Assembly: GCA_965207095.1 (NCBI GenBank)
Contig: CBDBMC010000001.1
Location: 74,357-138,356, forward strand
Source of the DNA: Candidatus Poribacteria bacterium
GTDB lineage: Bacteria; Poribacteria; WGA-4E; PCPOR2b
Length of the DNA stretch: 64,000 nucleotides
Reading direction: 5' to 3'
Part shown: piece after piece, positions 3,201 to 51,485 of the stretch
Layout: the number at the start of each line of letters is the position of its first letter
How positions within the stretch are numbered: the first letter of the stretch is position 1
Notes under the pieces: generated by a model
The model's database searches: none
Seen by the model: only the letters and a program-made list of their open reading frames with translations
What the model was told of the DNA's origin: nothing
Translations under genes and position numbers: made by a program

Positions 3201-6003
3201 TTCCATCGGGCGAAAAAGCCACAGTCGAGATGCGCTCTGTCCTTCTAATCGTAAGGAGTTCTGTCCCTGTTATGGTATCCCACAATTTTACTGTGGCATC
3301 CCCTCCACCCGATGCAAGTATATTTTCAGTTGGTGAAAATGCGATAGAATTGACACGACCTGCATGCCCAAATGTATTTTTCAATTGACCTGTTAAGACA
3401 TCCCACACTCTTACTAATCCAGCCCACCCAGCACCAGCAATTAGAGCACCATCATGTGACACTGATATGGTATCAATAGTATCTTCAGAGTCCAGCCGTA
3501 CAAGCTCTTGCATTGTCACAATATCCCATAGTATTATTGTCCTTCCATCGGAGGACGCAATAGTTTTTCCATTGGGAGAAAATGCTACATGTCTACCAAT
3601 TCCTCCATCTGAACTAAAAGTAGTAATTTTTTCTTTTGTTACAATACTCCACACCTGATTCTGAATAAGCCCCTCCCGTGAGCTGCCAACAATGGCATTT
3701 CCATCGGGTGAAAATGCGATACTGTTCACAGGATATTGACTAGGAAGCAGCGCAACTTCCCTATAATTTACCGTATCATAAAGCCATATACCAGTACTGC
3801 TTGATACGGCGAGATATTGACCGTTGGACGAAAATGCTGCCGCCCTATCACTCCAGCCAGGACCTCCTTTGCCTATTCGGAATCTTGCTCTAGTTGGCAA
3901 ATTCCACGTTTGATACCTATTGCTTTCTCTTACTTCTTGTGTGCCTTCTAAAATTGTCACAGCTACCTTAGAACTATCCACTTGCTCTGTCGGTTCTTCC
4001 GAAAGGGTAAATTTTCTACGAGAAGATACATCCCCATTTATATCAACGGCTACAATAGAAATATCCTGTTGGGTATTCGTAGAAAGGCTAGTAAAACTGC
4101 TGCCTGGCACATCGCCATCATATTCAAATTTCACAACAACTTCCTTTTCGCCCATCAGGTGACGGCATGCTTTCACTTCCGGCAAACCAGCCGGAGCCAG
4201 TGAGCCTGCTGATGTAACAAAGAAGATAACTTGATGTATCCCTTGCGAATCAGCAACCTTAACTTGAATATCGACACTTTCTGATCCTGCTGGATACGTA
4301 GTTGATGAAGTCGATTTGATCGTTGGGGAACGCCCATTTTCAGTTGGAATATCAGGGTTGAAATAAGGACTTACCGACAAAAAATCAGCACTGCATTTGG
4401 ACAATCTATCTTGATCAGGCCCGTCACTAGGCGCTCGATTGTATCCCGCCCCATACGACATGATATATCCGCCGCTACGGAAATCGTGTTGTAGTCCAAA
4501 CGCGTGACCTATCTCATGAGCAGAGAGTTTATCATACCCCGGTTCGTTAGCCTCTATTCTGTCCTGAAAATGATGCGCAGGGATTAAGAGATTTCCACCA
4601 TTCTTTCCAGAACTCCCTGCATTAGCATTCACGCGGCTATTTCCAACTCCCGTACCAATACCATCAATGCTACTATCGACGACAATAAAGTAGATGTTTT
4701 GCCAAACATCAAATTCTTGTCGGACCTCAGTACGCACAGTGTTACCTGTATCGTCAACATAGTAAATCTCGGACTGTTGCCCATCCACACGATGTACCAC
4801 CGGCTTGCCTTGTGCATCACTTTCAATCTTGAAAGTCATATCATATCCATGCACCTTCATACTCTCGTTATAGAAGACTTGAACTCTGAGAATCTCATCT
4901 TTCATCCGCTGAACCACATTTTCACGATATGGACGGTCATTTGGTAAGAAGTAGATCAGCCGTACCGTGCGCGGTTCGCCGACGTTCCGCCCGCCAGCTA
5001 GAACGTCAACAGTGACTCCTCGATTCTGGAGGGTTGGGATATGGGTGCCGGAGGATGGAGAACTGAGAGGGTTTCCTCGCAGATAGACCATGTCTCCATT
5101 TCCCAATCCCGTATTTGCCACTAATGCTGATATATCCGATATCGAGTTGTCCACAACATACAGCGATGTCAGATTAGTCAAGCCCGAAACCGCTGATATA
5201 TCTGATACCCAGTTATACGGAAAATGCAGGTATGCCAGATTAGTCAAGCCCGAAACCGCCGATATGTCCGATACCAAGTTATACCCAAGATACAGCGATG
5301 TCAGCTTAATCAAGCCCGAAACCGCCGATATGTCCGATACCGAGTTGTTCCTGAGACTCAGGATTGTCAGATTAGTCAAGCCCGAAACCGCCGATATGTC
5401 CGATACCAAGTTATCCTGAAGATTCAGCGATGTCAACTGAGTTAAGTCTCCCAACGCTGATATATCTGATACCGAATTGTTTGAAAAGCCCAATGTTTTC
5501 AGGTGAGTCAAGTCCGAAACCGCCGATATATCTGATATGAAGTTATTCCCAAGATGCAGCAATGTCAGGTTGGTTAACCCCGACAATGATGTGATGTCCG
5601 AAATTGAGTTATTCCCAAGATGCAACGATCTCAGATTAGTCAAGCCCGAAACCGCCGATATATCTGATATGAAGTTCCACCCAAGATACAACGTTCTCAG
5701 GCTGGTTAACCCTGACAATGATGTGATGTCCGAAATCGAGTTGCGCCCAAGATACAGCGATATCAGGTTGATTGCATGTTCCAGCCCGGTCAAATCACTG
5801 ATGTTGGACTCTCTCGCTGTAAGACTTCTCAATGCTGCCATATCTGACGAGGTGATGGGATCACCTGACGCCTTGCCCAATTCCGCCATAATTGCAGCGC
5901 GGAGGTTGGGATCAGGGATGTCTACCGTTTGTGCGGTTGACGTTGACGGAATTGAGAGGAAAATCAACAGGATAAGGGTAAAACGATGAGCCGGTATTGT
6001 CAT
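277..6003 (-). CDS. Giant secreted mosaic protein: signal peptide, internalin-like LRRs, HEIGHAFGLQHD zinc-metalloprotease (metzincin-like) domain, WD40 beta-propeller repeats, Big (bacterial Ig-like) domains, shared DUF module, T9SS C-terminal sorting domain
   Basis: Single 1927-codon ORF; likely start at the internal ATG at 6003 (MTIPAHRFTLILLIFLSIPSTSTA signal) with GGGGAG SD. Motifs LxxLxLxxNxISDIS xN, HEIGHAFGLQHD (DNA at 4505-4519), repeated FSPDG..WD units, NYPNPFNPETWIPY...GVYFY tail (TIGR04183-like). Confidence 0.8.
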   Translation of the reverse strand: MTIPAHRFTLILLIFLSIPSTSTAQTVDIPDPNLRAAIMAELGKASGDPITSSDMAALRSLTARESNISDLTGLEHAINLISLYLGRNSISDITSLSGLTSLRTLYLGWNFISDISAVSGLTNLRSLHLGNNSISDITSLSGLTNLTLLHLGNNFISDISAVSDLTHLKTLGFSNNSVSDISALGDLTQLTSLNLQDNLVSDISAVSGLTNLTILSLRNNSVSDISAVSGLIKLTSLYLGYNLVSDISAVSGLTNLAYLHFPYNWVSDISAVSGLTNLTSLYVVDNSISDISALVANTGLGNGDMVYLRGNPLSSPSSGTHIPTLQNRGVTVDVLAGGRNVGEPRTVRLIYFLPNDRPYRENVVQRMKDEILRVQVFYNESMKVHGYDMTFKIESDAQGKPVVHRVDGQQSEIYYVDDTGNTVRTEVRQEFDVWQNIYFIVVDSSIDGIGTGVGNSRVNANAGSSGKNGGNLLIPAHHFQDRIEANEPGYDKLSAHEIGHAFGLQHDFRSGGYIMSYGAGYNRAPSDGPDQDRLSKCSADFLSVSPYFNPDIPTENGRSPTIKSTSSTTYPAGSESVDIQVKVADSQGIHQVIFFVTSAGSLAPAGLPEVKACRHLMGEKEVVVKFEYDGDVPGSSFTSLSTNTQQDISIVAVDINGDVSSRRKFTLSEEPTEQVDSSKVAVTILEGTQEVRESNRYQTWNLPTRARFRIGKGGPGWSDRAAAFSSNGQYLAVSSSTGIWLYDTVNYREVALLPSQYPVNSIAFSPDGNAIVGSSREGLIQNQVWSIVTKEKITTFSSDGGIGRHVAFSPNGKTIASSDGRTIILWDIVTMQELVRLDSEDTIDTISVSHDGALIAGAGWAGLVRVWDVLTGQLKNTFGHAGRVNSIAFSPTENILASGGGDATVKLWDTITGTELLTIRRTERISTVAFSPDGKTLAWIEASPPDTIHLWDVTTRSIIALYEDPTVYDMNSIVFSPDGKTFLTVDAQNDIVKVWDINTGNTIDLGHIGLTPISFSPDSTMLATGGTRGVKVWEVNTGRDVATIPVKPSSHVRLVSFSPDGRTLAYRVGGEKFTRLWDVPTQTQTGIIENPSVADWAFSPDGKTLASATRHIITLWDVVTGQPIATLGGPLDGVRHITYSPDGNTLASVSRDKTVRLWDIATKQNIEILDGDSPYAAFSPDGTMLVFHKLNVGVKVWNLITRDMATIDRNDFMAFLPDSSMMILRSTSRESRGSVSVWDARTSRFVATLDSEIFAARKRPIFSPDGMTLAIMGQDSTILFDPEVIYNQLPLSALSKLLKISGDNQEGMPNETLAKMFVVEARDGNGSPLAGRSVTFAVVAGGGTLSVTNTTTDANGRAQSLLTLGPNLGTNVVKVGAEGISQTALFSAEATPPLPIPTTLKYVSGNNQIGLTGETLMQPFIVKVHDQYDDPMEGVTVTFLASVGGGLLSETSVDSDANGLARSTLTLGNDPVTNIVRVSVEGIAETVTFHAVAELLEFDLALPSGISLIHVPLKVRMVDGVAGTIESVGDLYDALGSEDNVIYLFTRNSQTQQWIGYLKPSDRSTPVDRQLTDDMGIITNLITPVPLRLRGSSLGTDGNSIITLNPGINLVGVPLRDSRITHVSNLFTLEGIADNVLVIMAQDNNGEFKQINPTSDSADIAIIGGQSFIMTTLREETVAISGSGWYNTSAMAAASPVVMRGIEVDTVTPILGLSGSIVDEETGLKLESFRVTVKNLSTRSAVAAVTSPDAAGYRSAIVDIETGRAATVGDILEISARSPNPLIGVQPLRYTVTVEDVKWGLIQLPELVAYEIPTETELLANYPNPFNPETWIPYRLAEDAFVTLTIYDGAGQVVRTIDVGHRIAAVYEGRSKAIYWDGRNNVGEGVASGVYFYHLSAGDYSATQKMVF

Positions 6004-6294
6004 AGATTTTCTCCCCTGAAGCTGGAAACGTATATGGGACACTGGTATCTTGATGGTCATACCACCTACCCTATCTGGCTTGTGCCTCGCTGCCTCACCT
6101 GCTGACTTTCATTATCCCTACACGCCTAAGCTTTAGTAAGGACGACATGTGTATAAAGCACCAACCCAATGAACCAATAAACTAACAAAGTCCAGTAGGG
6201 TAATATGTAGTAGCTTCCCTTAATATAGGCTACTATAGGCAGTGTATCAGACTATAAACGGCGTGTCAAGTATGCCCTAGATGTTTTCTATCCT

Positions 6295-8127: not shown

Positions 8128-8247
8128 AATGAAGATTAAATCGGTAATTTGCTATCGGCACCAACGCGGTCCGATAAATCGAGACCAGGGTTGGAAACCG
8201 CGCCTACCGTGTGTTTCAGGGAAAATCGGGATTACCGATTTAAATAC
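8128..8247. repeat. MITE fragment of the GGTTGGAAACCGC-hairpin family (B/C)
   Basis: Near-identical to 50978-51100 (gaagattaaa..tcggtaatttgctatcg..gcggttggaaaccgcgcctac..gattaccgatttaaatactta). Confidence 0.7.
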
Positions 8248-8497
8248 TTAGAGCCTGTTTTAAAAGTGAAACGGTCATCTTTAGGAAGTTCACATGTCGC
8301 CCCGCTGGGGCTTAGGTTGTTTGTTTGTCCCGTATTCTATAAACATGTCGCCCCGCTGGGGCTAAGAATCTGTTTTAAGAGTACGTGAAACGGTCATCTT
8401 TTGCCATTCTAGAGACACAATCAACCGATTTTGAGAGTATTTACCCGTAAACTGACAACTTTCAGAGATTATTTGGATTTTTCAAACAGGTTCTTAA
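8248..8497. repeat. Composite REP-bearing element, family A; REP copies at 8294-8312 and 8344-8363
   Basis: Same architecture as the copy at 1-230. Confidence 0.85.
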
Positions 8498-10311: not shown

Positions 10312-10389
10312 AAGGGATTATGCTGAAAACATGGTGTTGTCACAGCCACCGCGATTCACATTTCAAAATATAAGAAAGGGGTAATAATA

Positions 10390-11079
10390 ATGCACGAATC
10401 AACCAATCATATCAACGCCGTCCTTGCAGCATCTGCACGTTTAGCCGCAGACTCTGAAAAGCTAACAGAACCCAGCAATCATACCAATGCCGTCCTTGCA
10501 ATATCTGCACGTTTAACCGCAGACTTTGAAAAACTAACAGAACCCAGCAATCATCTCAAGTCCGCTCTTGCAGCATCTGCACGTTTAACCGCAGACTTTG
10601 AAAAACTAACAGAACCCAGCAATCATCTCAAGTCCGCTCTTGCAATATCTGCAGCATGTCTCACCGCAGACCTCGAAAAACTAGGAGAATCCCGTAATCA
10701 TCTCAAGTCCGCTCTTGCAGTATCTGCACGTTTCGCCGCAGACCTTCAGAGACTAAGCGAACCCAGCAATCATCTCAAGTCCGCCCTTGCAGTATCTGCA
10801 GCATGTCTCACCGCAGACCTCGAAAAACTAGGAGAATCCCGTAATCATTTCAAATCTGCCCTTGCAGAATCTGCACGTTTCGCCGCAGACCTTCAGAAAC
10901 TAAGAAACCCCAACAATCATTTCAAATGTGCCCTTGCAGAATCTGCACGTGCCGCTGCGACCTCTGAAAAAGCGCAAGAGCATCGAAACAATTACGTCGA
11001 GACCAACTACAATCGCGACTTAGCTTATCAGGATAAAGAAGAACCTGTGGACATGCCATCGAAGATTATAACAAGGTAG
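10390..11079 (+). CDS. Hypothetical protein built of about 9 tandem 20-aa repeats (EPSNHLKSALAVSARFAADLQKLS)
   Basis: 60-nt period at DNA level over 10405-10960; AT-rich relative to flanks; good promoter and SD. Confidence 0.55.
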   Translation: MHESTNHINAVLAASARLAADSEKLTEPSNHTNAVLAISARLTADFEKLTEPSNHLKSALAASARLTADFEKLTEPSNHLKSALAISAACLTADLEKLGESRNHLKSALAVSARFAADLQRLSEPSNHLKSALAVSAACLTADLEKLGESRNHFKSALAESARFAADLQKLRNPNNHFKCALAESARAAATSEKAQEHRNNYVETNYNRDLAYQDKEEPVDMPSKIITR

Positions 11080-11674: not shown

Positions 11675-11880
11675 TCTTCATCAAGGCAGTTATATGAAAA
11701 CGTACCTAATGCCGCCATTGAGAGAATATTGCTCATAAGCCGCTCTCCATCTCCTTCGCTCGCCTTAATCTCCGCTTAACCAAGTCAATCTCCTTCTTGG
11801 GTGTACTTATCCCACGTTGAAATTTCTGTCGCATTTCAGCTGCGCCTTCCGATAAAGCCCCGGCGGGGTGACAGGTGTAT
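11675..11880 (-). pseudogene. Second degraded copy of the toxin tail plus first codons of the HigA-like antitoxin
   Basis: ...KKEIDLVKRRLRRAKEMESGL* overlapping ATGA with a 23-codon MSNILSMAAL.. fragment; same DNA as the 9990-10060 junction. Confidence 0.4.
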
Positions 11881-11992: not shown

Positions 11993-12970
11993 ATGTAACT
12001 CTTGATTGTTAATATAACGCAAGTTGCTAGATGTTTATTTAATGATGAGTGTAATCATAGTGGCAATGAGAAACAAAACCACTTTAATCTCAAATCCAGC
12101 GGCAGTCACTGCATGAATAGAACGATGGTAGCCGTTGGGTGCATTAGACCGTTTGTCACCTCCACCCGCTTGCGATACTGATGGTGTAGGTAAACTTGCC
12201 ATCGGTTTATATTGACGCTTACTGTTTTTCTTACGCAACGGTTTGAGCATAATACCGGCTTGGGACAAAGCAGTCCTCAGAATCCCATAATTACAATAGG
12301 CTCTATCTGCATGAACAACCGCTCCCTGAGGCAAATCAAACGGATAACACCGCAACCCCATCACATCACCAAAACTGCCCGGTGTTAAGAAAAACTCAAC
12401 CGGCACACCACGCTCAGTGACCATCAGATGCAGTTTGAGTCCATAGAAGTATCTACGTTTACTGGTTATCTTACCGCGCCACTCTTTACCTTGATACAGT
12501 TTTGCACTAGAGATACGAATTGGGTCACATGCTGGAACGGGATACGAGTCAATAGCATAGATTTGATGTGAGTTTTGTGCTTTACAGTTAGCGGCTATAG
12601 ATTCAAAAAGTATCTGAAACATCGGTGCAATTTGATGGAGTCTGCGGTTGAATCGTGCTTTACTGAGCATATTGGGAATATATCCCTGTTCTTTGAGTAG
12701 GTGTCGTGCCAGCTGTTGATTGCCACCGAACAGTTCTGCTGCCACTAAGGCGGTGGTCATTACTTCTGCGGCAGACATTTTGGTTCGTGGGTCATCTTGA
12801 TATCCGTGTTGAATTAACAGATCGTCACAAAGTGTATAAAATGCTACGATGACTAAGTCCATGGGATTCTCCTGTTTATGAGGTTTGTTGTCGCTAACAA
12901 ATACTCTAACGGAAATTCCATGGATATTCAAATAGCAACTTGCGTTAATATAATGGACGACAGCATCCAA
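11993..12970. mobile_element. IS982-family insertion sequence with about 21-bp imperfect terminal inverted repeats (TTAATATAACGCAAGTTGCTA)
   Basis: Left TIR 12009-12029, right TIR 12933-12953 in inverted orientation; single DDE transposase ORF inside; inserted into the RAYT gene. Confidence 0.75.
12035..12862 (-). CDS. IS982-family DDE transposase
   Basis: 275 aa from ATG 12862; N-terminus MDLVIVAFYTLCDDLL... is the typical IS982 start (ΦΦCxVDDF motif). Confidence 0.75.
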   Translation of the reverse strand: MDLVIVAFYTLCDDLLIQHGYQDDPRTKMSAAEVMTTALVAAELFGGNQQLARHLLKEQGYIPNMLSKARFNRRLHQIAPMFQILFESIAANCKAQNSHQIYAIDSYPVPACDPIRISSAKLYQGKEWRGKITSKRRYFYGLKLHLMVTERGVPVEFFLTPGSFGDVMGLRCYPFDLPQGAVVHADRAYCNYGILRTALSQAGIMLKPLRKKNSKRQYKPMASLPTPSVSQAGGGDKRSNAPNGYHRSIHAVTAAGFEIKVVLFLIATMITLIIK

Positions 12971-13297
12971 CTGAGAATGTACATACGAGAACGCTGCAGT
13001 AAGCCTCCCTGCCATTCAAATCTACCGACAACCGCATCCCTTTCTGTTAATCCATTTTGACGAATTTGTTTTGATATCTCTCACCAAGTCAGAAATCGCA
13101 ATGTCGGGTGTGATACCTACAAGGATATGAAGGTGATCTGGCATTGAATTAATCCGAATTACTGTCTGCTTTTTATGGGTGATAATGCGGGTAACATATT
13201 GGTGAAGTGCCTCTTTGTGCTGTTTGGGAATGAGGGATTGCCTGCCTTTGACAGCAAAAATAATGTGTATGTAAAGTTGGGTATAGGTATCAGCCAT
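12958..13297 (-). pseudogene. REP-associated tyrosine transposase (RAYT / IS200-like Y1 TnpA), frameshifted and truncated by the IS982 insertion
   Basis: MADTYTQLYIHIIFAVKGRQ...MPDHLHILVGI...SSKWINRK then a +1 shift into ...GRFEWQGG (RAYT KFEWQEGYGAFS motif) which runs into the IS982 TIR; REP doublet immediately 5-prime. Confidence 0.7.
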
Positions 13298-13315
13298 GAC
13301 TTTTGTGTGGGTCAC

Positions 13316-13385
13316 CTGTCGCCCCGCTGGGGCTTGGGAGATTTTGTTATCCCGTGTGCTCAATAAACATATCGCCCCGCTGGGG
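13316..13385. repeat. REP doublet (GTCGCCCCGCTGGGGC x2, 34-nt spacer ending AATAAAC) abutting the RAYT 5-prime end
   Basis: Copies at about 13316-13333 and 13367-13385. Confidence 0.85.
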
Positions 13386-13604
13386 CTATGTTGGTTCATT
13401 AGTCCATCAGTTTATTGGTGCAATTAATGAACCTTTGAGGCTACAGCATATTAATTTGAATCCCAAGCATCGGGATGGCGTATGCCTATCACTAACACCT
13501 TGGTTTCTATAGATTCGTGCTCATTCGTGCAGATTCACGGACGCCTTACGCCCTCTTCTTACCTGAACTTCCGTGACGTTGTTTCGTGCAGGATTGGTTC
13601 ACCT

Positions 13605-13672
13605 GTCGCCCCGCTGGGGCTTTCATTACTAGGGGATTTCACTTTTCTATAAACATGCCGCCCCGCTGGGGC
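13605..13672. repeat. REP doublet
   Basis: Copies at about 13605-13621 and 13655-13672, spacer ends CTATAAAC. Confidence 0.85.
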
Positions 13673-13847
13673 TAAATACACTAAAAATTCAGGGGGCAGC
13701 AGCCATCGTAGGGGCTTGGTTTCCAAGCCCATCGGGTTGGGTTACCCAACCCCTACGCCTCTCGCCCTCTCGTTTTTCCGTCTTCTCCGCTTTCCTCCGT
13801 GTTCTCCGTATAATCTTCTCAATCCGCGATTCAGACAAAAAGTCCAG

Positions 13848-18131: not shown

Positions 18132-18385
18132 TTAGAGCCTGTTTTAAAAGTGAAACGGTCATCTTTAGGAAGTTGTTCACATGTCGCCCCTCTGGGGCTT
18201 AGGTTGTTTATTTGTCCTGTATTCTATAAACATGTCGCCCCGCTGGGGCTAAGCATCTGTTTTAAGAGTAGATGAAACGGTCATCTTTTGCCATTCTAGG
18301 GGCACAATCAACCGATTTTGAGAGTATTTACCCGTAAAATGACAACTTTCAGAGATTATCCCGATTTATCGGGACAGGTTCTTAG
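18132..18385. repeat. Composite REP-bearing element, family A; REP copies 18181-18200 (variant GCCCCTCTGGGGC) and 18232-18250
   Basis: As other family A copies. Confidence 0.85.
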
Positions 18386-22065: not shown

Positions 22066-22321
22066 TAGTTGACAAACCTGTAAGTCAAAATTCATGTCTC
22101 GACAACTGCTTATGCCATGATCACAGGTTAGGCAACCTGTGTCTACAAAAGACGGTGATCCTAAAGCAGTAACCTTTGGTGCTAGCTTAGTGAGATTTTT
22201 TTTACATTGTTCAAGTCGCTTTGGATCCCCCCGATAAACCGGGGTAAACTAATTATCGGGGAGTTCATGGGTTCATTAGTCGGTTGGTTGATTTATTCTT
22301 ATGTTCCCCCTTCGGATACAC

Positions 22322-22391
22322 ATGTCGCCCCGCTGGGGCTTGGCTGTATGTGTGATATCCATATTCTATAAACATGTCGCCCCGCTGGGGC
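22322..22391. repeat. REP doublet
   Basis: GTCGCCCCGCTGGGGC at 22322-22340 and 22373-22391. Confidence 0.85.
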
Positions 22392-22554
22392 TAAATGAAC
22401 CGCTGAACCAATAACTTTTACGTTTCACGCATCATGTGTCACGTTATCGACAGCTGCAAACTAGCACCATTGGTTGGTAGGCATATTCCGTATGCCGTAA
22501 CCCGTGTACAAATTACGTCACGACGCAACGCACCCATTAAATTGCACCAATGGG

Positions 22555-32255: not shown

Positions 32256-33161
32256 CTACGCATCACGTTCGAGTCCGTGCAAAATCTCCTCAAACGTCTC
32301 TGCAACAAATACGCCTGCTTCACGCAACGCTTTCACCTTCCCACGAACCGCCCCGCGTCCGCCCTCGACAATTACTCCAGCATGACCGAACCGCACACCC
32401 TCTAAGTCATCAACAAACCTGCCGGACAGAAAGGCAACTATTCGGAGTCGAGACGGCTTCCCCGTCAATCGCGCTGCGAGTTGTTCCTCCGCAGCGCCGC
32501 CCGGCTCACCATATATGACCACAGCATCGGTGGCAGGATCCGCTTCGAGGCGTTCAATCAGGTCCGTAAAATTGGAACCGATGATTGCATCCCCACCCAC
32601 GCCGATGGCGATACTCTGTCCAACACCACGCCCCGTCAAATAGCTGGCGATTTCGGAGGTCATGCCACCGCTGCGGGAAAGCACAGCGACACTGCCCGGC
32701 ATAAAGGAGCGGCGGACATTATCCACACGTCCGCCGATGGTACCGAGCTTGGCAATTCCCGGACGGATCAGTCCAAGTGAATTGGGACCGATGACGGTGC
32801 AACCAACGTGGCGGGCGGCGACTTGCAATTTACTGGTGTCTAACTGCGGAACCCGTTCCGTCATAATCAGACAGAGCTGCATACCGGCAGAGAAGGACTC
32901 GAGGGCGGCATCAAGCACGGCGGGCGGAGGGACAGAAATGACGCTGACAGTCGGGCGATGCTTCTCAACCGCTGCCGCGACCGTGTCGTAGACGGGTATC
33001 CCATGTACGCACTGCCCTCCCTTTCCGGGCGTCACGCCGGCGACGATATGACTCCCGTAAGCGAGCGAATCCTCAACCATATGGCTCGCCTCTCTGCCGG
33101 TGATGCCCTGAACGAGGACACCTGCGTTCGGGTCAAGCAGCATGGGCGCGATTCCTTTCAA
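32256..33161 (-). CDS. sucD: Succinyl-CoA synthetase alpha-subunit-like CoA-binding protein
   Basis: 301 aa; GITGREASHMVEDSL..GSHIVAGVTPGKGG... Confidence 0.75.
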   Translation of the reverse strand: MKGIAPMLLDPNAGVLVQGITGREASHMVEDSLAYGSHIVAGVTPGKGGQCVHGIPVYDTVAAAVEKHRPTVSVISVPPPAVLDAALESFSAGMQLCLIMTERVPQLDTSKLQVAARHVGCTVIGPNSLGLIRPGIAKLGTIGGRVDNVRRSFMPGSVAVLSRSGGMTSEIASYLTGRGVGQSIAIGVGGDAIIGSNFTDLIERLEADPATDAVVIYGEPGGAAEEQLAARLTGKPSRLRIVAFLSGRFVDDLEGVRFGHAGVIVEGGRGAVRGKVKALREAGVFVAETFEEILHGLERDA

Positions 33162-34337
33162 CAGCCAACTGGGCAGCTGTATCTAATGACACCTCACGTC
33201 CGTACACTTCGACGCCGGCTGCCTCCATGATCTCTCGCGCTTCCGCCTCCCAGTTACCGGGAACACGGAAAAGACTGATTGTGTCTGCTGGCTTCCGTCC
33301 CACACCCTCGATACCCATCAGGACACCGCGTGCGATGACGTCCGCACGGGTATTGTTCACCACATTCATGATAACTGCCATCCCTCTAACGCCCGGCTTC
33401 GACAGCAGGAGCGACGTTATGGCGGCAACCTTCTCTTCAGTTGGGTTTCCGCCTACCTCGCAGTAGTTTGCGGGAGAACCGCCGTGCGCCTTAATTGCGT
33501 CGAAAACGGTCAGGCTTGCGCCACCGCCGCCGATCAGCAACGCGAGATCGCCGTCAAATTCGACCACCCGTCCGGCTACACCCCGATGGTCTATCGCATC
33601 AATTTGTTGTGCCTCAAGTTCCAGAGGGGTGGGCGGACGACCCGCCGCGGTCATCGTCAGTTCGCCCAACGGCTCCAACCGTTCCCTCTGTCGATACACC
33701 GCCTCGTCCTCAATCTCCACCCGCGCATCAAGTCCGATAAGTTTTTCGTCCTTGGCGACGACTAGCGGATTGATTTCCATTGTAACCCCATCGCAGGCGA
33801 GAAATGCTTGGGACAACCTTGGTGAAGGAACTTCACCGACCCCCACGAGCGTTTTGCCCGTCAAGCCGACTTCGGCAGCCAGTCCTCTCGCCTTATACGG
33901 CGCAAGTCCCGTCCACGGATCGAACGGCTGCCGTGCGACCTGATTGCCCTGAGTAGATTCAACGTCCACGCCACCGGCAAGACTTAACAGGGCAACGGGC
34001 AGTTTTGCGACCGTATCCCATGTAATACCAACGTAAAACTCATGTTCGTAGTTTAGTTTCGGTTCAATCGAAATGACATCAACGGTTGTACCGCGGAGTT
34101 CCATTCCGAACAAAGCCTCCGCCGCAGCGACGGCTTGATTAACGGTCTCCGCGAACTTCACCGCTCCGACGTTTCCGCGTCCACCGAAAGGGGTCTGCGC
34201 CTTCAGGACAGCGGGCAGCCCGACACGCACTCAACGGTTGATCGCACCTCGTCCATTGAACCTACCGGTGTCGATTTCGTAAAAATTAAGCCGAAATTAG
34301 AGAGTAACTTTTTGCTTTGATGTTCGAGGAGTCTCAT
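33133..34337 (-). CDS. sucC: Succinyl-CoA synthetase beta-subunit-like ATP-grasp protein with an apparent +1 frameshift near 34226
   Basis: N-terminal 45 codons (MRLLEHQSKKLL...VECV) from ATG 34337 are in a different frame from the body (GLPAVLKAQTPFGGRG...); the paralogous fragment at 36440-36596 reads through in frame, pinpointing one extra C. Confidence 0.65.
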
Positions 34338-34443
34338 CGCTTTTCCTTTTGACGGTGGCACCTTGCGTGATTATACCATATTCCGACAAAAGGATGGAGA
34401 GGTTTTGAGTCGTTTTAACCGACTAACGCCACGCTGTGAGCAC

Positions 34444-34512: not shown

Positions 34513-35535
34513 CTAGCGCGTAGGAGGCTCATCATTTGGTTCGGAATGGACAGGAGGTTTGCGTCGTTCCCGTTCAAACTGTCGAGCCGCTTCAGGATCC
34601 ATCTCCCTGAAACGACGGAGCCCCTCTTTTGTGCCGTACTGGTCAAAGAGCTGTTTCGCCTGATCTCGTTGTTCCGGCGACAATCCCTCCCAGCCGCTCG
34701 CTTCAACACCTTTAGCAGCTGTCGGTGCAGGCGGTTGGGCGGTGGGCGGTTGGTATACATGCCTATCTTCGTGGTGAACAGGTTCAGTCGTGACTGAGGT
34801 CTTAGGTTCAGGCATTACAGGAGTCTCCTCAGAACGAGCAGGCGGAAAGTCTATATCCCCATCAATGCTTTCTGAAGAAATGCTATCGGGCGCAGGGGTA
34901 TCGGACCAGAGATGCTCAGGTACATTCCCAAAATGATACTCCTTATAACCCGGCGGAGGCCTTACATTCTCCAAATCCTCCTCATACACGATCTCAAAAT
35001 CGTCCTCGTCGAGCCCCTGTGCTTTCTGAGTCTTTCGTATTGCCAACATTAGTCCATGCCCGCCCTCTGGAAATAGGTAGTGTGCCACTTCTAAGCCAGC
35101 AATCTCTTCATCAATTGTCATACGTTCCCGTTTGTATATTTTTCGCATGTATTCGGAGAGCGTATGAACCTGTGGAATGTCTCCAAACATTTGAATCCAT
35201 TGGTCGTGCACAAAATCTGCTTTCTCGTCTGGAGTGAGGGTTTCTGAAGACGTTTTTTCTGCGGAGGCGGTTTGCTCCTGTGGAAGTGTCTTATGCAGGC
35301 GGTCATCAGGAATGAATCTCTCCCCATTCACTTCAACAACCTGCCCTTCAACAAAGTCGTTAGAATCTTCCATTTCATTTACTGATGAGGAGGAATTGTT
35401 AATAGGTTGGTTAACAACCGCAGGTGATTGAGGTAGATTTTCTATAAAGTTCTTTTCTTCCTTGTTTAGGTAGAAAATCCAGCCAGCCACGAAAACGACT
35501 ATCACTGAGAAAAATAGAATAAACTTTCGCATCAA
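34513..35535 (-). CDS. Hypothetical membrane-anchored protein with conserved C-terminal QLFDQYGT.EGLRRFREMDPEAARQFERERR motif
   Basis: 340 aa; N-terminal TM helix; paralog (frameshifted) at 36773-37923. Confidence 0.6.
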   Translation of the reverse strand: MMRKFILFFSVIVVFVAGWIFYLNKEEKNFIENLPQSPAVVNQPINNSSSSVNEMEDSNDFVEGQVVEVNGERFIPDDRLHKTLPQEQTASAEKTSSETLTPDEKADFVHDQWIQMFGDIPQVHTLSEYMRKIYKRERMTIDEEIAGLEVAHYLFPEGGHGLMLAIRKTQKAQGLDEDDFEIVYEEDLENVRPPPGYKEYHFGNVPEHLWSDTPAPDSISSESIDGDIDFPPARSEETPVMPEPKTSVTTEPVHHEDRHVYQPPTAQPPAPTAAKGVEASGWEGLSPEQRDQAKQLFDQYGTKEGLRRFREMDPEAARQFERERRKPPVHSEPNDEPPTR

Positions 35536-35701
35536 AATACCGTCCCTTCTGAAATCGCTTATTTGTGTAATAACAAGGCAAAAAAAATTGTGATTTTCCC
35601 TTATGGCATACTATTCTTGTTTGAAGAAATTACCGCCGTTTTTTTACCAGCCCCTACGGAGATACGAGTAGAGGCTGGGCTGCCTAGTTTGCTAACGATG
35701 C

Positions 35702-35986
35702 TTAAGTATCACAGCTAGCAACGGTAAAAGTTGTATGAATGGTTACCCATGACACGATCTGATAACTGTGACTAGTGTGTCCCGGGTTACCCATTATATG
35801 GTAGTTATAGTAGTGACCATATCCATCGTATACAACTGGCTCAAGGGTGATTCTAGTGTATGAAAGGTTAGCGCAGTAATTGTCGAAGTCATCGTAATAT
35901 TTTACAACATTTTTTACCCTTATCTTCTCGTCTGCTCCTGCTTCAGCCGATTCCGTAAGATATACGACCATTAGGCCGATCATCAT
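35702..35986 (-). CDS. Possible small Tyr/His/Gly-rich protein (weak call)
   Basis: 94 codons in AT-rich segment downstream of D-repeat copy 1; no convincing SD. Confidence 0.2.
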   Translation of the reverse strand: MMIGLMVVYLTESAEAGADEKIRVKNVVKYYDDFDNYCANLSYTRITLEPVVYDGYGHYYNYHIMGNPGHTSHSYQIVSWVTIHTTFTVASCDT

Positions 35987-36117
35987 GACGAGTGAAAGTG
36001 TGCAGAAGAGAAATGTGCCTCCTTTGAATTGTTAAGAATTTTTCCCTTACATCTATTTTGAGGTTGAGTTGCGACTTATTGAAAATCCATGCTTTTCAAC
36101 TCAACCACAATCTCATA

Positions 36118-36376
36118 AGGAGCAATTATCATGCCAAAAGAGACGAAAACCGCCCAAACCCAGTGGGCATCAGGCTTCAAGCACGAAATGTCCAAAAAGT
36201 CGTTGGAGGAAATAACTTGATATTAGTAAATATTGCTAGCAAATTTTACTAATGTTAGTAAATTTTACTAATCCTCTCGCACAAGTTCTAAGGGGGCAGC
36301 CAAAGCCCGTGCATCGCTGGAAACATCTAACATATCTCACAGCCTTGTCGACTTCAACGAGTGCTTGAGATAAGGT
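36118..36376. repeat. About 260-bp repeat family D, copy 1 (palindrome TTAGTAAATTTTACTAA)
   Basis: Copies at 45487-45750 and 47241-47510; the shared small ORF MPKETK..QTQWASGF is not frame-conserved. Confidence 0.8.
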
Positions 36377-36596
36377 GCGGTACAATATCAATTTTTGGGC
36401 AATCATCAACAACAACGGGCAGCTGAGATAACTTCATTCGCCCACCGAAAGGGGGCTGCGCCTTCAGGACAACGGGCAGCCCAACGCACTCAACAACGGC
36501 TCGCACTTCATCCATCGAGTTGACCGGCGTCGATTCCGTAAAAACCAAGCCGAAGTTGGAGAGTAATGTTTTGCTTTGATGTTCGAGGAGTCTCAT
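36354..36596 (-). pseudogene. Duplicated 5-prime fragment of the sucC-like gene fused to repeat-derived sequence
   Basis: MRLLEHQSKTLLSNFGLVFTESTPVNSMDEVRAVVECVGLPVVLKAQPPFGGR then unrelated tail; part of the segmental duplication 36440-37925. Confidence 0.6.
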
Positions 36597-36772: not shown

Positions 36773-37923
36773 CTAGCGCGTAGGAGGCTCATCATTTGGT
36801 TCGGAATGGACAGGAGGTTTGCGTCGTTCCCGTTCAAACTGTCGAGCCGCTTCAGGATCCATCTCCCTGAAACGACGAAGCCCCTCCGCTGTACCGTACT
36901 GGTCAAACAACTGTTTCGCTGTGTCGTAAGAATCAAGCGATAGCCCTTCACCCATGATTGCCGAAGCCGATGGTGGGATCGCCGGGTGAGTGACATCAAC
37001 CCCTGTCTCGCTGCGGCGTGACGGCGTTTCGGGTTGAAATGATGCAGAAACCGGGGCTTCTGAAGCAGTATCTGTATTACCGCCCTCAGAAAAGTTTGAT
37101 ACCCCTGAATACCCACTAGCCGATACTGACTCACTACCTCCTAACACGCTCCGGGTGGAAGTTCTGCACCTTCTAACGCTCCGGGTGGAAGCCCTGCCCT
37201 GCTGCTGCGTAGCATCTTTTGCATCCAACCCGGTACCGCGCCTTCACCGTCATTGGGTAGGAAACTCACCTTCACCGGCGCCTTATCGGATAAGGGCGGG
37301 GGTATCATCTGAGGCTCTAACATCGCAAGTCTATCGTGTATCGTCTCCCCCTCGGTGCCACGCGGCTCAGCCGTCAGATGCGCTGGACGTTCCAATTCTG
37401 AGCGTAAGATAGCATCGCCCTCATCATACTCCTGACCTATAGGAACTATGACTTTATACATGGTGCCATCAGGTCCAATAACCCGCTGCATGATTTGATG
37501 GCGAGATAGCCGTACCTCCTTTTGATGCGTCTTTAGGTATGCCTCCACTGCGGGCGTTCTCTTGCCTGTTATAAACCATTCCTCTACCTCTAAATCTGAT
37601 TGACTCATCTCTTCTTCGGTATGGATTGAAAAACCGGCGATTTTATAGACATATTTACTACTACTATCAGGCTTATGTTCAGAATCAACACCCCCTGACT
37701 GTGGGGCAAGTGCCGACGCCGACTGACCGGCGGAAACTGCTGGGGCGGCTTCGGAAGAATGCACAGACTGGCCCACAACTGAACGATTAAACGCTTCAGT
37801 TTCCGATATAAACGCCTCAAACGCTACATGGTTCCGATAAGCCTTATACCCCAAATAAGTGACACTGAGCAATGCAATAATACTTACACCAATAACGTAA
37901 GGGTTGAAACGATGCTTTAACAT
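36773..37923 (-). pseudogene. Frameshifted paralog of 34513-35535 (two overlapping ORFs 37141-37923 and 36773-37228)
   Basis: N-terminal TM protein frame and conserved C-terminal motif are in different frames; a 28-bp imperfect tandem duplication (ACGCTCCGGGTGGAAG x2) sits at the shift point 37141-37200. Confidence 0.5.
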
Positions 37924-37962
37924 AGGATCACCTTCTATAAATTGAACTTAGGATGTCAACGG

Positions 37963-47240: not shown

Positions 47241-47510
47241 AAGCAATTGTCATGCCAAAAGAAACGAAAAACGCCCAAACCCAGTGGGCATCAGGCTTCA
47301 AGCACGAAATGGTCCAAAAAGTCGTTGATAGCGATTAAAACCCAATTATTAGCAACTGTTACTTAGCAACTATTGCCAAAGTTACCTTGAGCAACTGTTG
47401 CTAACTTTTTTGCACAAGTTCTAAGAGGGAAACTGAAGCCCGTGCATCGCTGGAAACATCCAACATATCCCACCGCCTTGTCGACTTCAACGAGTGCTTG
47501 AGATAGGGTA
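47241..47510. repeat. Repeat family D, copy 3
   Basis: Seen directly. Confidence 0.8.
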
Positions 47511-47559
47511 TAGTGCAAACTGTGCAACTCCCCATTCAGACTATTTTCTTTAGAGTTAA

Positions 47560-47805
47560 ACTATTGGTTTAACTCCTCAAAAATTAAATTTGCATCCTGT
47601 CTATATCCTCCTGTATCCTTTGAAGTATAGGGCTTACACAGTCAACTGTAGGGGTAAGATTACCCCACCCGTGCTTGTCAGAAATCGGTTGCTGTTACGC
47701 GATCTGTTATATGAACCAATTTATTTTCGACAACTTGAAACTATTTGTTTCAAGTTAAAGAATTTAAATTTGCATCCTGTCTGTGTCCCCCTGTATTCTT
47801 TAAGA
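47560..47805. repeat. Two direct about 45-bp repeats (AATTTAAATTTGCATCCTGTCT...) each preceded by a short palindrome
   Basis: 47582-47625 and 47761-47805. Confidence 0.6.
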
Positions 47806-47811
47806 TAACCT

Positions 47812-47950
47812 AAGTTGCTAATTAGCCTGTAGGTCGCCTTTCCACACTCGCCACGAATTAGACTCACTGAAGTCACGAATGCACATGCTAATTAGCCTGT
47901 AGGTCGCCTTTCCACACTCGCCACGAATTAGACTCACTGAAGTCACGAAT
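47812..47950. repeat. 1.8 copies of a 76-bp tandem duplication (CTAATTAGCCTGTAGGTCGCC...)
   Basis: Perfect 63-nt identity between 47812-47874 and 47888-47950. Confidence 0.85.
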
Positions 47951-48017
47951 CGCCCGCTGGGGCTTGGTGCGTGTAGGAATTCACTGCTGCTATAAACATG
48001 TCGCCCCGCTGGGGCTT
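47949..48017. repeat. REP doublet (first copy degenerate)
   Basis: 47949-47965 and 47998-48017. Confidence 0.75.
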
Positions 48018-48022
48018 TAAAA

Positions 48023-48082
48023 CTGTAGGTCGAGATTCACATCTCGACACAAAACCGTCGATTTCGGAAAATCGACCTACAG
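48023..48082. repeat. 60-nt palindromic hairpin element family E (CTGTAGGTCGAG...CGACCTACAG)
   Basis: Seen directly; related to 16854-16911. Confidence 0.7.
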
Positions 48083-48455
48083 AAATGATAGGGGATTAGG
48101 GCCTATTGGTTTGAATGTACCGACGACTAGCAACTTGCGTTAAAATATAGGACTTATGCAGTCAACTGTAGGTGCTCCGTTCCGAGAGTTGTCAACTTGC
48201 ATCTCCCGATTCATCGGGAGAGTCTTCGGAATGGGATTGAAACAGAGAGGAATCTCCCAATCCCGATACATCACTCCGCAACTTCTCATTTCATTTATTG
48301 GCTTATGTTAAAAGTTCGTGCAATAGAAACCGAGTTTTCAAGTCCCGATTCTCGGGATGCTCGGAACGGCAAAAAAACTCGGTTTATAGTGCTCGGTCTA
48401 TCAACTAGCAACTTGCGTTATAGAAAGGAAATGGGAACAGTGGAGAATCTCGCAA

Positions 48456-48594
48456 TTATAGTAGATTTTAGAGTTAATGAGACACTCCAAATCGGCTTGT
48501 CCCGATTCTCGGGATCCCGACAGATCGGGATTGGAAACAGCGCCTACCAGGTGGAGGGCGAAAGCGTCTATTTATTTTTAGAATCCGCCATAAG
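48456..48594. repeat. MITE of the GGTTGGAAACCGC family (ends TAGTAGATTTTAGAGTTAATGAGACAC ... TATTTATTTTTAGAATCCGCCATA)
   Basis: Related copies 50950-51228, 52626-52897, 63021-63370. Confidence 0.7.
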
Positions 48595-48629
48595 AAGGCA
48601 AACTACGTTTACCGAAAAAAGGAAGGTAA

Positions 48630-49601
48630 ATGGATAACCGACGAGCAATTCACCGCAGTCCGCGGACACAAAACCGAGACCTTGTGGGACACAGCCCAGC
48701 CACACAACAGGTGCGAGAACGTATTCGGCAGGCGGTTGACGCAAACGTTGATACGATTCTCCTCACGGGTGAAACCGGCACAGGCAAAGAGGTGGTCGCA
48801 CGGGAAATTCACTTTCAAGGGTCTTCGGAAGAGAATCCATTTATTGCTGTCAACTGTTCGGCGTTTCCAGGGTCGCTGGTTGAAAGTGAACTCTTTGGCC
48901 ACGTCAAAGGAGCCTACACCGATGCGACAGCGGATAGGGCAGGCTACTTTGAGATGGCAGATAACGGCACGCTTCTTCTGGATGAAGTTGCTGACCTCCC
49001 CCTCCACACACAAGCAAAGCTACTTCGGGTCGTCGATACGCGGACACTGATGCGGGTTGGCGGCACTCAAGAGATCTCTTTCCAGGAACGGATTATCAGT
49101 GCATTTAACAGAGATCCTGTATCCCTTGTCGAATCTGGGCAGTTCCGCAACGATCTATTCCATCGCCTGAACGTTTTTCCTATCCACCTGACACCGCTTC
49201 GAGACCGTCAGGAGGATATCCTACCGTTAGCAGATCATTTTCTGGAAGCATACACCGCCAGAAGTGGACGCAGCTTCGACACCTTTTCGGAGGGGGCACA
49301 ATCGACCCTTCTGGATTATCAATACCCTGGCAATGTGCGTGAGTTGCGGAATATCGTTGATCGCACTGCCGCTCTTTGTCCGCTAAAGGTTTCGCTGATA
49401 GGAGCTGAACATCTTGATATTCAAGGAGAAGTATTGGAAGAGATACCGTTGCAATCTGACCAATCAGCGGACGAGAATGAACAAGAGCGAATCTTGCGGG
49501 CACTGAAAGCAACCCGATGGAATCGTCGTCAAGCCGCAAAAAATCTCGGTATCCCCTACTCCACCTTCCGCGCAAAGATGAAAAGGTTGGGAATTTCGTA
49601 G
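48630..49601 (+). CDS. Sigma-54-dependent transcriptional activator lacking an N-terminal sensor domain (AAA+ sigma54-interaction domain + Fis-type HTH), with GAYTDA in place of GAFTGA
   Basis: 323 aa; GETGTGKE Walker A, ESELFGHVKGAYTDA, C-terminal NRRQAAKNLGIPYSTFRAKMKRLG HTH; AGGAAGG SD. Confidence 0.85.
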   Translation: MDNRRAIHRSPRTQNRDLVGHSPATQQVRERIRQAVDANVDTILLTGETGTGKEVVAREIHFQGSSEENPFIAVNCSAFPGSLVESELFGHVKGAYTDATADRAGYFEMADNGTLLLDEVADLPLHTQAKLLRVVDTRTLMRVGGTQEISFQERIISAFNRDPVSLVESGQFRNDLFHRLNVFPIHLTPLRDRQEDILPLADHFLEAYTARSGRSFDTFSEGAQSTLLDYQYPGNVRELRNIVDRTAALCPLKVSLIGAEHLDIQGEVLEEIPLQSDQSADENEQERILRALKATRWNRRQAAKNLGIPYSTFRAKMKRLGIS

Positions 49602-51228: not shown

Positions 51229-51232
51229 TCTC

Positions 51233-51485
51233 TAAGAGCCTGTTTTAAAAGTAAAACGGTCATCCTTAGAAAGGTGTTCACATGTCGCCCCGCTGGGGCT
51301 TGGGTTGTTTGTTTATCCTGATTCTATAAACATGTCGCCCCGCTGGGGCTAAGAGTCTGTTTTAAGAGTAGGTGAAACGGTCATCTTTTGCCATTCTAGG
51401 AGCACAATCAGCCGATTTTGAGAGTATTTGCCCGTAAAATGAGAACTTTCAGAGATTATCCCGATTCATCGGGACAGGCTCTAAT
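51233..51485. repeat. Composite REP-bearing element, family A; REP copies 51292-51310 and 51342-51360
   Basis: As other family A copies. Confidence 0.85.

Follow-up and report, generated by a model that had tools for sequence, protein, structure and literature searches.

NtrC, an activator with a Fis-type helix-turn-helix (HTH), recognizes 17-bp dyads with the half-site TGCACC at the glnAp2 promoter. At the hrpL promoter of Pseudomonas syringae, the paralogous sensor-less sigma-54 activators HrpR and HrpS act together. Paired DNA-binding domains seated on upstream activating sequences and a DNA loop to sigma-54 are the textbook layout for an enhancer-binding protein, and the presence of multiple dimer sites upstream of a sigma-54 promoter is a general principle (PMC7175178). 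In the Escherichia coli pspF-pspA system, the activator has no regulatory domain and is built of just an AAA+ domain and a C-terminal HTH, the sigma-54 promoter under its control is transcribed divergently from its gene, and the upstream activating sites lie ~100 bp or more from the -24/-12 core (PMC7175178). A similar arrangement was found in a 64-kb stretch of Candidatus Poribacteria contig CBDBMC010000001.1 (the window), where an element of ~270-300 bp is repeated at 36.1, 45.5, and 47.2 kb. Each copy is probably a complete sigma-54-dependent promoter-enhancer module on the minus strand that controls secreted-protein operons beside the gene of its activator.

A profile search of the window located the copies at 36103-36390 (copy 1), 45478-45763 (copy 2), and 47226-47528 (copy 3), all on the minus strand and each with E < 1e-90. 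The initial annotation had placed three repeats at these sites, and the profile search recovers them with slightly wider extents. A 21-mer, GATGCCCACTGGGTTTGGGCG, is shared unchanged by all three (chance expectation 0.00). The order of parts on the promoter strand (5' to 3') is upstream module, central cassette, spacer, core, and leader. The minus-strand end of each copy carries TTGGCATG-N4-TTGCT, in which GG and GC are 10 bp apart in the sigma-54 -24/-12 pattern. The cores are TGGCATGATAATTGCT (GG-N10-GC) at 36121-36136 in copy 1, TGGCATGTTAATTGCT at 45490-45505 in copy 2, and TGGCATGACAATTGCT at 47242-47257 in copy 3. The motif TGGCAYG-N4-TTGCW has only three matches in 64 kb, all of them exact and one per copy. 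Homology between the copies ends directly 3' of TTGC, which is the expected edge of promoter conservation. The predicted transcription start sites are near 36110 for copy 1, ~45479 for copy 2, and ~47231 for copy 3, the last being ~49 nt ahead of a conserved ATG at 47182 (MKTVLEVL...).

Relatives of the element were collected by two routes. A strict scan with the pattern CCCACTGGGTTTGGG-N14-18-TGGCAYG covered one genome per species plus a metagenome collection. Among the species genomes, true copies occurred only in three Candidatus Poribacteria chromosomes (L002-L004) with one match each. The one further species-genome match and the single metagenome match (L001 and L005) were rejected as chance matches in coding DNA, and no true copy was detected in the metagenome collection by the strict scan. 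The strict pattern misses ~40% of copies, and these per-genome copy counts are lower bounds. Retrieval of the contexts of 12 activator orthologues yielded 13 loci, among which L009 and L010 duplicate one another. The profile search detected the element in every fetched locus. Altogether, there are 21 core promoters from 16 sources, all Poribacteria loci. The core consensus is TGG[C/T]A[C/T]G-NN-AATTGC (also written TTGGCAYG-NN-AATTGC), and it is invariant but for two single-base variants, the canonical TGGCACG in L012 and TGGTATG in L018. GG and GC are 10 bp apart in 21 of the 21 copies, in agreement with the sigma-54 pattern TGGCAC-N5-TTGCW. Every copy also faces a same-strand gene that starts ~30-500 nt downstream, and 19 of the 21 have dyads. 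This orientation bears out the placement in front of genes proposed in the initial annotation; in the window, the translations behind all three copies have signal-peptide or membrane-anchor amino termini.

The spacer between the enhancer and the core is ~86 bp long (36137-36222 in copy 1, where it contains GATGCCCACTGGGTTTGGGCG and TCAACGAC-TTTTT) and has the invariant blocks TCAACGA and AAGCC-N-GAT. The spacer plus core has a mean identity of 0.84 over 66 genome pairs compared to 0.73 for the 4-fold synonymous sites of the activator gene, and this segment is under purifying selection. The mean identity of the central cassette is 0.74 and is bimodal by enhancer class (see below). The upstream module of ~105-120 nt (CCTTATCTCAAGCACTCGTTGAAGTCGACAAGG...GTGC) occupies 36272-36390, 45643-45763, and 47405-47528 in copies 1 to 3; the homology reaches ~47543 in activator-adjacent copies of other genomes. 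With a mean identity of 0.71, the upstream module evolves at the neutral rate between genomes, and its 0.84-0.90 identity among the window copies therefore reflects recent duplication or gene conversion and not function. L003, L015, and L018 lack this module or have other sequence in its place, and searches for a conserved open reading frame (ORF), an Rfam family, or a sigma-70 promoter within it were negative. A sigma-70 promoter search of copy 3, covering both the element and its upstream module, was negative, and a scan of L009 gave only weak 9-of-12 matches, of which the plus-strand one is outside the element ~85 nt before the activator start. The spacer might help to bend the DNA or act as an IHF-like site; partial matches to WATCAANNNNTTR were seen by eye only, and no IHF site is claimed. 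A GCCCA-N7-TGGGC inverted repeat with a T-run just upstream of the -24 element has a terminator-like score and was set aside because its stem is uncompensated in L006b, L008, L009, and L011.

The central cassette of ~90 bp contains a 17-bp palindrome at the distal position and, proximally, two overlapping dyads that jointly form a 30-31-bp palindrome. Each dyad is 17 bp with an 8-1-8 build, and the six half-sites alternate in orientation and share the consensus TTAGYAAN. The dyads of copy 1 (enhancer 36223-36271) are at 36223-36239 (proximal), 36236-36252 (middle), and 36255-36271 (distal). The copy 2 dyads (enhancer 45593-45642) are at 45593-45609, 45607-45623, and 45626-45642, and those of copy 3 (enhancer 47349-47404) are at 47349-47365, 47363-47379, and 47388-47404. 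The distal dyads of copy 1, TTAGTAAA-N-TTTACTAA, and copy 2, TTAGCAAC-N-GTTGCTAA, are the only perfect dyads in the window; the distal dyad of copy 3 is broken by a 6-bp insertion, and this copy has no perfect one. Two to three palindromes had been annotated initially in copies 2 and 3; the palindromes are present, and the correct number is three in each copy. Searches with TTAGCAACNGTTGCTAA (up to three mismatches) returned six matches that are all within copies 2 and 3 (0.21 expected), and TTAGTAAANTTTACTAA returned three that are all within copy 1 (0.19 expected). In all dyad-bearing copies except window copy 3, the dyads begin at constant distances from the T of TGGCA (-136/-137, -117/-118, and -103/-104); window copy 3 has insertions, and its dyads start at -147/-122/-108. 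The dyads are 96-130 bp upstream of the core, within the range of ~80-150 bp or more of upstream activating dyads, and their centers are at approximately -154, -135, and -122 from the predicted start when the C of TTGC is taken as -12.

Covariation of the dyad arms was analyzed in 14 distinct sequences. Mirror cells are complementary in 95.5% of cases versus 15-55% with slid partners. The compensated arm change described in the initial annotation is real: mirror pairs 5/13 of the distal palindrome and 31/53 of the proximal outer arms are CG in eight sequences and TA in six, and are never mismatched. Both switching pairs correspond to half-site position 5, and they switch together in the same copies without intermediates. 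This defines two enhancer classes that differ at one shared half-site position in four of the six half-sites. Class A has four TTAGTAA and two GCAA-type half-sites and contains 11 copies, including window copy 1 and those in L002, L004, L006b, L007, L011, L012, L013, and L016 (two copies). Class B has six TTAGCAA/GGCAA-type half-sites and contains eight copies, including window copies 2 and 3. A parallel change at position 5 in two separate palindromes favors recognition by a protein over a hairpin. Between the two possibilities raised in the initial annotation, the dimeric regulator site gains support and is made specific by the sigma-54 core, the shared half-site consensus, and a linked activator with a Fis-type HTH.

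The gene for this activator (48630-49601, plus strand, 323 residues) is divergent from copy 3 and is the sole gene of its family in the window. The protein has an AAA+ sigma-54 interaction domain (residues 18-186; PF00158, 5.6e-62) with a GAFTGA-type loop, a lid, and a Fis-type HTH (residues 283-320; PF02954, 5.3e-11), and it lacks an N-terminal sensory domain. More than 70 orthologues of 321-327 residues are 73-98% identical, and nearly all have a GAFTGA-type loop (GAYTDA, GAFTDA, GAFTNA, or GAFTGA); a sister group of 430-457 residues has a receiver domain. In 12 of the 13 loci fetched via an intact activator, the element is located on the divergent strand just upstream of the activator gene, and activator-gene fragments adjoin the element in L002 and L003.

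We infer sigma-54 usage, the start site, the identity of the dyad-binding protein, hexamer assembly, and looping from the arrangement of these sequences. In the proposed mechanism, sigma-54 RNA polymerase would bind the TTGGCATG-N4-TTGC core as a closed complex. Dimers of the neighboring sensor-less activator, or of a paralogue, would occupy the three 17-bp dyads, which would be enough to nucleate a hexamer. The ~86-bp spacer would permit the formation of a DNA loop that allows the ATPase ring to contact sigma-54 and open the promoter. The module would have been copied within the hypervariable citE-like-to-sucCD locus by tandem duplication and recombination, thereby placing gene cassettes that are unrelated to one another and encode small secreted or membrane proteins under one control logic. 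Gene conversion would move the enhancer classes between copies, with the conserved flanks as homology arms.

A sigma-54 promoter with an enhancer is a known kind of switch, and it is the two discrete, swappable palindrome versions that set this one apart. The window activator aligns end to end with the PspF models but falls below every NCBIfam equivalog cut-off (TIGR02974, 263.5 versus 443.55 bits; NF008622, 231.3 versus 529 bits), and no PspA-like gene was identified among the window neighbors with Pfam or NCBIfam. The window module also differs from the PspF system in having three dyads instead of two sites and variable secreted-protein cassettes as targets. The 17-bp dyads and the several adjacent dimer sites that would nucleate an active oligomer upstream of a sigma-54 promoter resemble NtrC at glnAp2; the differences are the TTAGYAAN half-sites, the 3-4-bp overlap between two dyads, and the absence of a receiver domain from the window activator. 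HrpR and HrpS are likewise sensor-less sigma-54 activators and control secretion-related genes, but the window locus has a single activator gene. The two half-site types mixed in class A prompt the idea of hetero-oligomer formation here, which is pure speculation.

Several observations weigh against the promoter-enhancer interpretation or its link to the adjacent activator. The L1 loop of the window activator is GAYTDA and not GAFTGA. No ORF with an RpoN box is present within the window or 17 related loci. The DNA-binding domains of the adjacent activators do not cluster by operator class (permutation p = 0.19; AAA+ control, 0.64), and the co-evolution of a regulator with its operator that was put forward in the initial annotation is not demonstrated by this comparison. 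Two copies, in L015 (9790-9885) and L018 (11705-11837; copy at 11778), keep the core plus leader or the spacer plus core and have no dyads, and the dyads are thus not indispensable for retention of the core. The 21 copies are related by descent and gene conversion and are not independent observations. The L015 and L018 copies are useful natural controls on the need for dyads.

The failure of class to track the adjacent DNA-binding domain means that the protein accepts class A as well as class B or, failing that, that one class is read by a paralogue encoded elsewhere. The latter leads to an unlikely alternative, in which the core is used by sigma-54 and the dyads are operators of another protein, either a second activator paralogue (e.g. 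the 444-residue receiver-domain group) or a repressor, and the A and B forms are read by different proteins. The independence of palindrome class from the adjacent DNA-binding domain fits this explanation, as does the coexistence of both classes at loci with one activator (the window and L006). Poribacteria genomes also encode several close activator paralogues (e.g. P0038 and P0094, whose longest contig has the same length of 6,278,894 bp), and the 444-457-residue receiver-domain group is 70-75% identical. A single position of the recognition helix (L/F) shows a trend with class: PYSTL is found beside class A in four of four loci, whereas PYSTF is beside class B in five or six loci and class A in three; the p value for this trend (Fisher, ~0.05-0.07) was computed by hand and is uncorrected for phylogeny. 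Against a different reader of the dyads, no regulator gene other than that of the 323/327-residue activator shows consistent linkage with the element, no second regulator is conserved in the locus, and 17-bp dyads at -120 to -155 have the geometry used by such activators.

A very unlikely alternative is that the palindromes are nucleic acid structures, such as a cruciform, a hairpin, or, on the strand of the activator gene, an intrinsic terminator of low strength, and are not protein-binding sites. Single strands of the palindromes fold better than shuffled sequences (z = -3.2 and -3.7), the arms keep 95.5% complementarity, and the class B distal palindrome followed by TTTTTT has a terminator-like score on the plus strand (L009). 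However, the distal and proximal palindromes share a half-site consensus and changed together at the same position, which a structure does not require. The class B to class A change weakens the single-strand fold from -15.2 to -8.6 kcal/mol, a loss of ~6.6 kcal/mol. The arms are separated by a 1-nt spacer, class A lacks the T-run, and there is no converging gene. The stems are AT-rich and only the class B plus strand scores as terminator-like, so the palindromes do not qualify as Rho-independent terminators, which have a GC-rich stem, a loop of 3-8 nt, and a T-run and stand where a transcription unit ends. The dyads are located upstream of the predicted start and would not be transcribed by this promoter. 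The hairpin option of the initial annotation is disfavored by the parallel change, the weaker fold, and this location.

The promoter-enhancer interpretation is consistent with the mosaic structure of the copies. The identity of the spacer plus core is 0.850 within and 0.851 between classes, whereas the identity of the central cassette is 0.843 within and 0.674 between classes. Copy 1 (class A) and copy 3 (class B) from the same genome have identities of 0.90 in the upstream module, 0.60 in the central cassette, and 0.92 in the spacer plus core. The corresponding values for copy 1 and the class A copy of another genome (L002) are 0.71, 0.97, and 0.87. Orthologous genes are found behind different classes: the copy 2 operon is behind class B in the window and class A in L012, and the copy 3 gene orthologues follow a class B copy in L009 and L006a, a class A copy in L007 and L004, and an enhancer-less copy in L015. 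The window, L006, and L007 are ~100% identical over 47543-49470, but their elements and the codons of the activator DNA-binding domain differ, which indicates that the enhancer cassette and the DNA-binding domain each recombine as modules. The activator genes of these three loci are ~100% identical over the AAA+ domain and diverge sharply in the last ~130 nt (49470-49601 in the window, HTH), where the encoded sequences are FRAKMKRL, FRYKMGKL, and LRYKMERLGISQMRD. This divergence looks like a DNA-binding-domain swap by recombination.

A truncated activator that retains the lid and HTH is fused to the element upstream region in L003 (4554-5093, plus strand) behind a Shine-Dalgarno-like AAGGGGGAAACC and a GTG. 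It may be either a pseudogene or a DNA-binding-only protein able to compete at the dyads. The L003 upstream module is replaced at GATGCAC by antisense ...RSDLFHRLN... codons of the truncated activator, a junction that we read as the probable outcome of a ~1.7-kb deletion and not as homology. Weak profile matches inside intact activator genes stemmed from the L003 alignment row, and an origin of the upstream module as a remnant of the activator gene was rejected.

Copy 1 was initially described as lying at the junction of a segmental duplication, and it does abut the 34.2-34.7/36.5-36.9-kb duplication (families D11 and D12). The duplicated stretches are the sucC 5' end and the tail of the 340-residue-protein gene; the sucC 5' fragment (36354-36596) directly precedes copy 1, and its junction with the copy is the upstream edge of the upstream module. 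The L004 locus is arranged as the activator, one element, a 267-residue gene, a 340-residue gene, and sucC. The window arrangement agrees with an [element-genes-sucC 5' end] unit having been duplicated in tandem, with gene turnover afterwards, and such a duplication would account for the position of copy 1 at the junction. The sucC-like gene at 33133-34361 (minus strand) is split into overlapping ORFs (34203-34361 and 33133-34230) by either a frameshift or a sequencing error; it is an intact 399-residue gene in L004 and other loci.

The first proteins encoded downstream of the three copies (94, 699, and 269 residues) have no BLASTP match to one another, and the spacer plus core is 0.89-0.92 identical among the window copies. 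Putative mobile promoters were defined by Matus-Garcia et al. (2012) as sequences of at least 50 nt with at least 80% identity that occur upstream of non-homologous coding regions in one genome (PMC3488235). The element family falls under this definition because the first genes behind its copies are unrelated. In contrast to the promoters described in that study, the window unit is ~270 bp with a full enhancer, is confined to the locus of its activator, and spreads by local tandem duplication and gene conversion instead of dispersal.

We regard as doubtful, though conceivable, an extension of this picture in which the enhancer classes are functionally distinct 'regulatory alleles' whose readers are activators with different DNA-binding domains, or homo- as opposed to hetero-oligomers. 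Gene conversion would then rewire the pairing of cassettes with activators, and the repeated module would be a homology substrate for shuffling, duplicating, and deleting cassettes in a recombinase-free, integron-like diversification locus.

The ~270-bp unit is extremely unlikely to be a mobile or insertion sequence (IS)-derived repeat (a miniature inverted-repeat transposable element (MITE) or solo terminal repeat) that has no regulatory role and is incidentally placed in front of genes. The window is rich in MITE-like repeats, many copies have a leader segment similar to the 15-bp terminal inverted repeat of a DDE transposase element, and a palindrome arm shares the 8-mer TAGCAACT with that repeat. 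The resemblance to an IS982 terminal inverted repeat noted in the initial annotation extends to these eight bases and nothing beyond them. However, the element alignments revealed no terminal inverted repeats or target-site duplications at the element ends. There are one to three copies per locus and almost always one locus, with one match per genome in the strict scans of three Poribacteria chromosomes. The invariable direction toward a gene and the purifying selection on the spacer plus core also argue against a mobile repeat. Virtually no credence is given to a small peptide or non-coding RNA encoded by the element. Each window copy is overlapped by short ORFs on either strand (e.g. a plus-strand GTG...TGA 19-codon frame after AGAGGGAAAC), but the 19-codon frame has a GTA start in L002 and is broken by an insertion, the plus-strand MPKETK... 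frame is broken by the copy 3 indel, the minus-strand frame has a stop in copy 1, and the upstream module that holds these ORFs evolves neutrally. The small ORFs were rejected as candidates on account of these lost starts, indels, and stops, and Rfam searches of 35.5-48.7 kb were negative for E values up to 1, with only tRNAs detected in five related loci.

The promoter-enhancer modules precede different gene sets. Copy 1 is followed by 34513-35986 (minus strand), which encodes a 94-residue Tyr/His-rich ORF and a 340-residue protein with a carboxy-terminal YGTxEGLRRFREMDPEAA. The 94-residue ORF (35702-35986) has an uncertain start codon and a 58%-identical homologue in L016 that is also behind a class A copy; the proteins downstream of copy 1 have no Pfam or NCBIfam matches. 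The copy 2 operon (36773-45380, minus strand) encodes a 699-residue UshA-like/glutaredoxin/multi-transmembrane fusion, Cys-rich paralogues of 154 and 152 residues, a 247-residue protein, an 836-residue C39-peptidase/DUF1573 protein, an FGE-sulfatase, a 260-residue protein, and a 151-residue fragment. In L012 the entire operon is syntenic and immediately adjoins the activator gene, with a class A copy in front of it. The Cys-rich 152- and 154-residue proteins have a stretch that resembles a double-glycine leader (LDMEEMSQIAGG / ...AGAG), and the 836-residue C39-peptidase/DUF1573 protein lacks an ABC-transporter domain. The copy 2 operon may be a peptide maturation and export system. The genes behind copy 3 (46014-47215, minus strand) encode a 269-residue membrane-anchored protein and a 126-residue secreted protein.

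The neighborhood shared by the fetched loci consists of a citE-like gene, the activator, divergent hypothetical genes, sucC, sucD, and a TonB-dependent receptor. The stretch between the activator/citE-like gene and sucCD (34.4-48.6 kb in the window; L004, L006-L009, and L011-L018) is a hypervariable island. Each locus has a different set of small hypothetical secreted or membrane proteins, many of which end in YG(T/P)EEGLRR(F/L)REMDPEAA, and a separate copy of the promoter module accompanies every set.

These results provide a testable picture of sigma-54 control in Poribacteria, an uncultivated phylum of sponge symbionts for which no paper was found that links it with rpoN or sigma-54 regulation. 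The parts of the picture are a sensor-less activator, a probable operator code (8-1-8 dyads of TTAGYAAN), a promoter with a defined sequence, and, as the regulon, small secreted and membrane proteins that vary between loci. The regulon would include the Cys-rich peptide/C39-peptidase/thiol-redox operon, and its products are plausible host- or community-interaction factors. The locus is also a natural example of promoter-enhancer reuse, in which one module stands before unrelated genes, its flanks are homogenized within genomes, and the operator is maintained in two discrete forms from genome to genome. A functional difference between these forms would make the locus a case in which swapped enhancers rewire regulation; without one, it is a sigma-54 regulon of the ordinary kind whose promoter has been duplicated.

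Downstream of the -12 element, 16 of the 21 copies share a conserved 5' leader (36040-36120, minus strand, is a window example). The leader starts with a GGTTGAA-N3-TTCAACC hairpin followed by GGAAAAAGCATGGATTTTC. The hairpin is conserved with little covariation and has no Rfam match. A longer leader in many loci has TTAGCATA-N13-TATGCTAA plus TAGCAACTTGGATTAGCATA, a stretch that resembles the IS terminal repeat.

The window contains other repeats. A DDE transposase gene (PF13612; gene 12035-13015, element 12015-13015) is bracketed by inverted 15-mers, TAGCAACTTGCGTTA. Solo copies of TAGCAACTTGCGTTA with unrelated flanks are located at 48128, 48406, and 52917, the first two of which are between copy 3 and the activator gene. 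The stretch between copy 3 and the activator (47540-48600) consists of ~1.1 kb of nested short repeats; L009 has none of these and only ~200 bp at this place. Among the repeats are a 65-nt sequence duplicated perfectly in tandem (47816-47880 and 47886-47950) and members of the GTCGCCCCGCTGGGGC hairpin-pair family. A MITE-like family has two CATGTCGCCCCGCTGGGGCTT copies ~50 nt apart and is found at 25-98, 8293-8366, 13315-13388, 13600-13677, 18180-18253, 22319-22396, 47946-48019, 51281-51354, 57008-57081, and 57305-57378. The CATGTCGCCCCGCTGGGGCTT pair is often within a ~240-nt repeat that occurs five to six times (1-201, 8245-8483, 18132-18370, 51232-51470, 57257-57495, and 61953-62191). A giant eukaryote-like repeat protein of 1927 residues (LRR, WD40, and Big_1) is encoded at 277-6060 on the minus strand and has a tandem array with a 66-nt period at 4991-5818; a second tandem array is located at 10363-10971.

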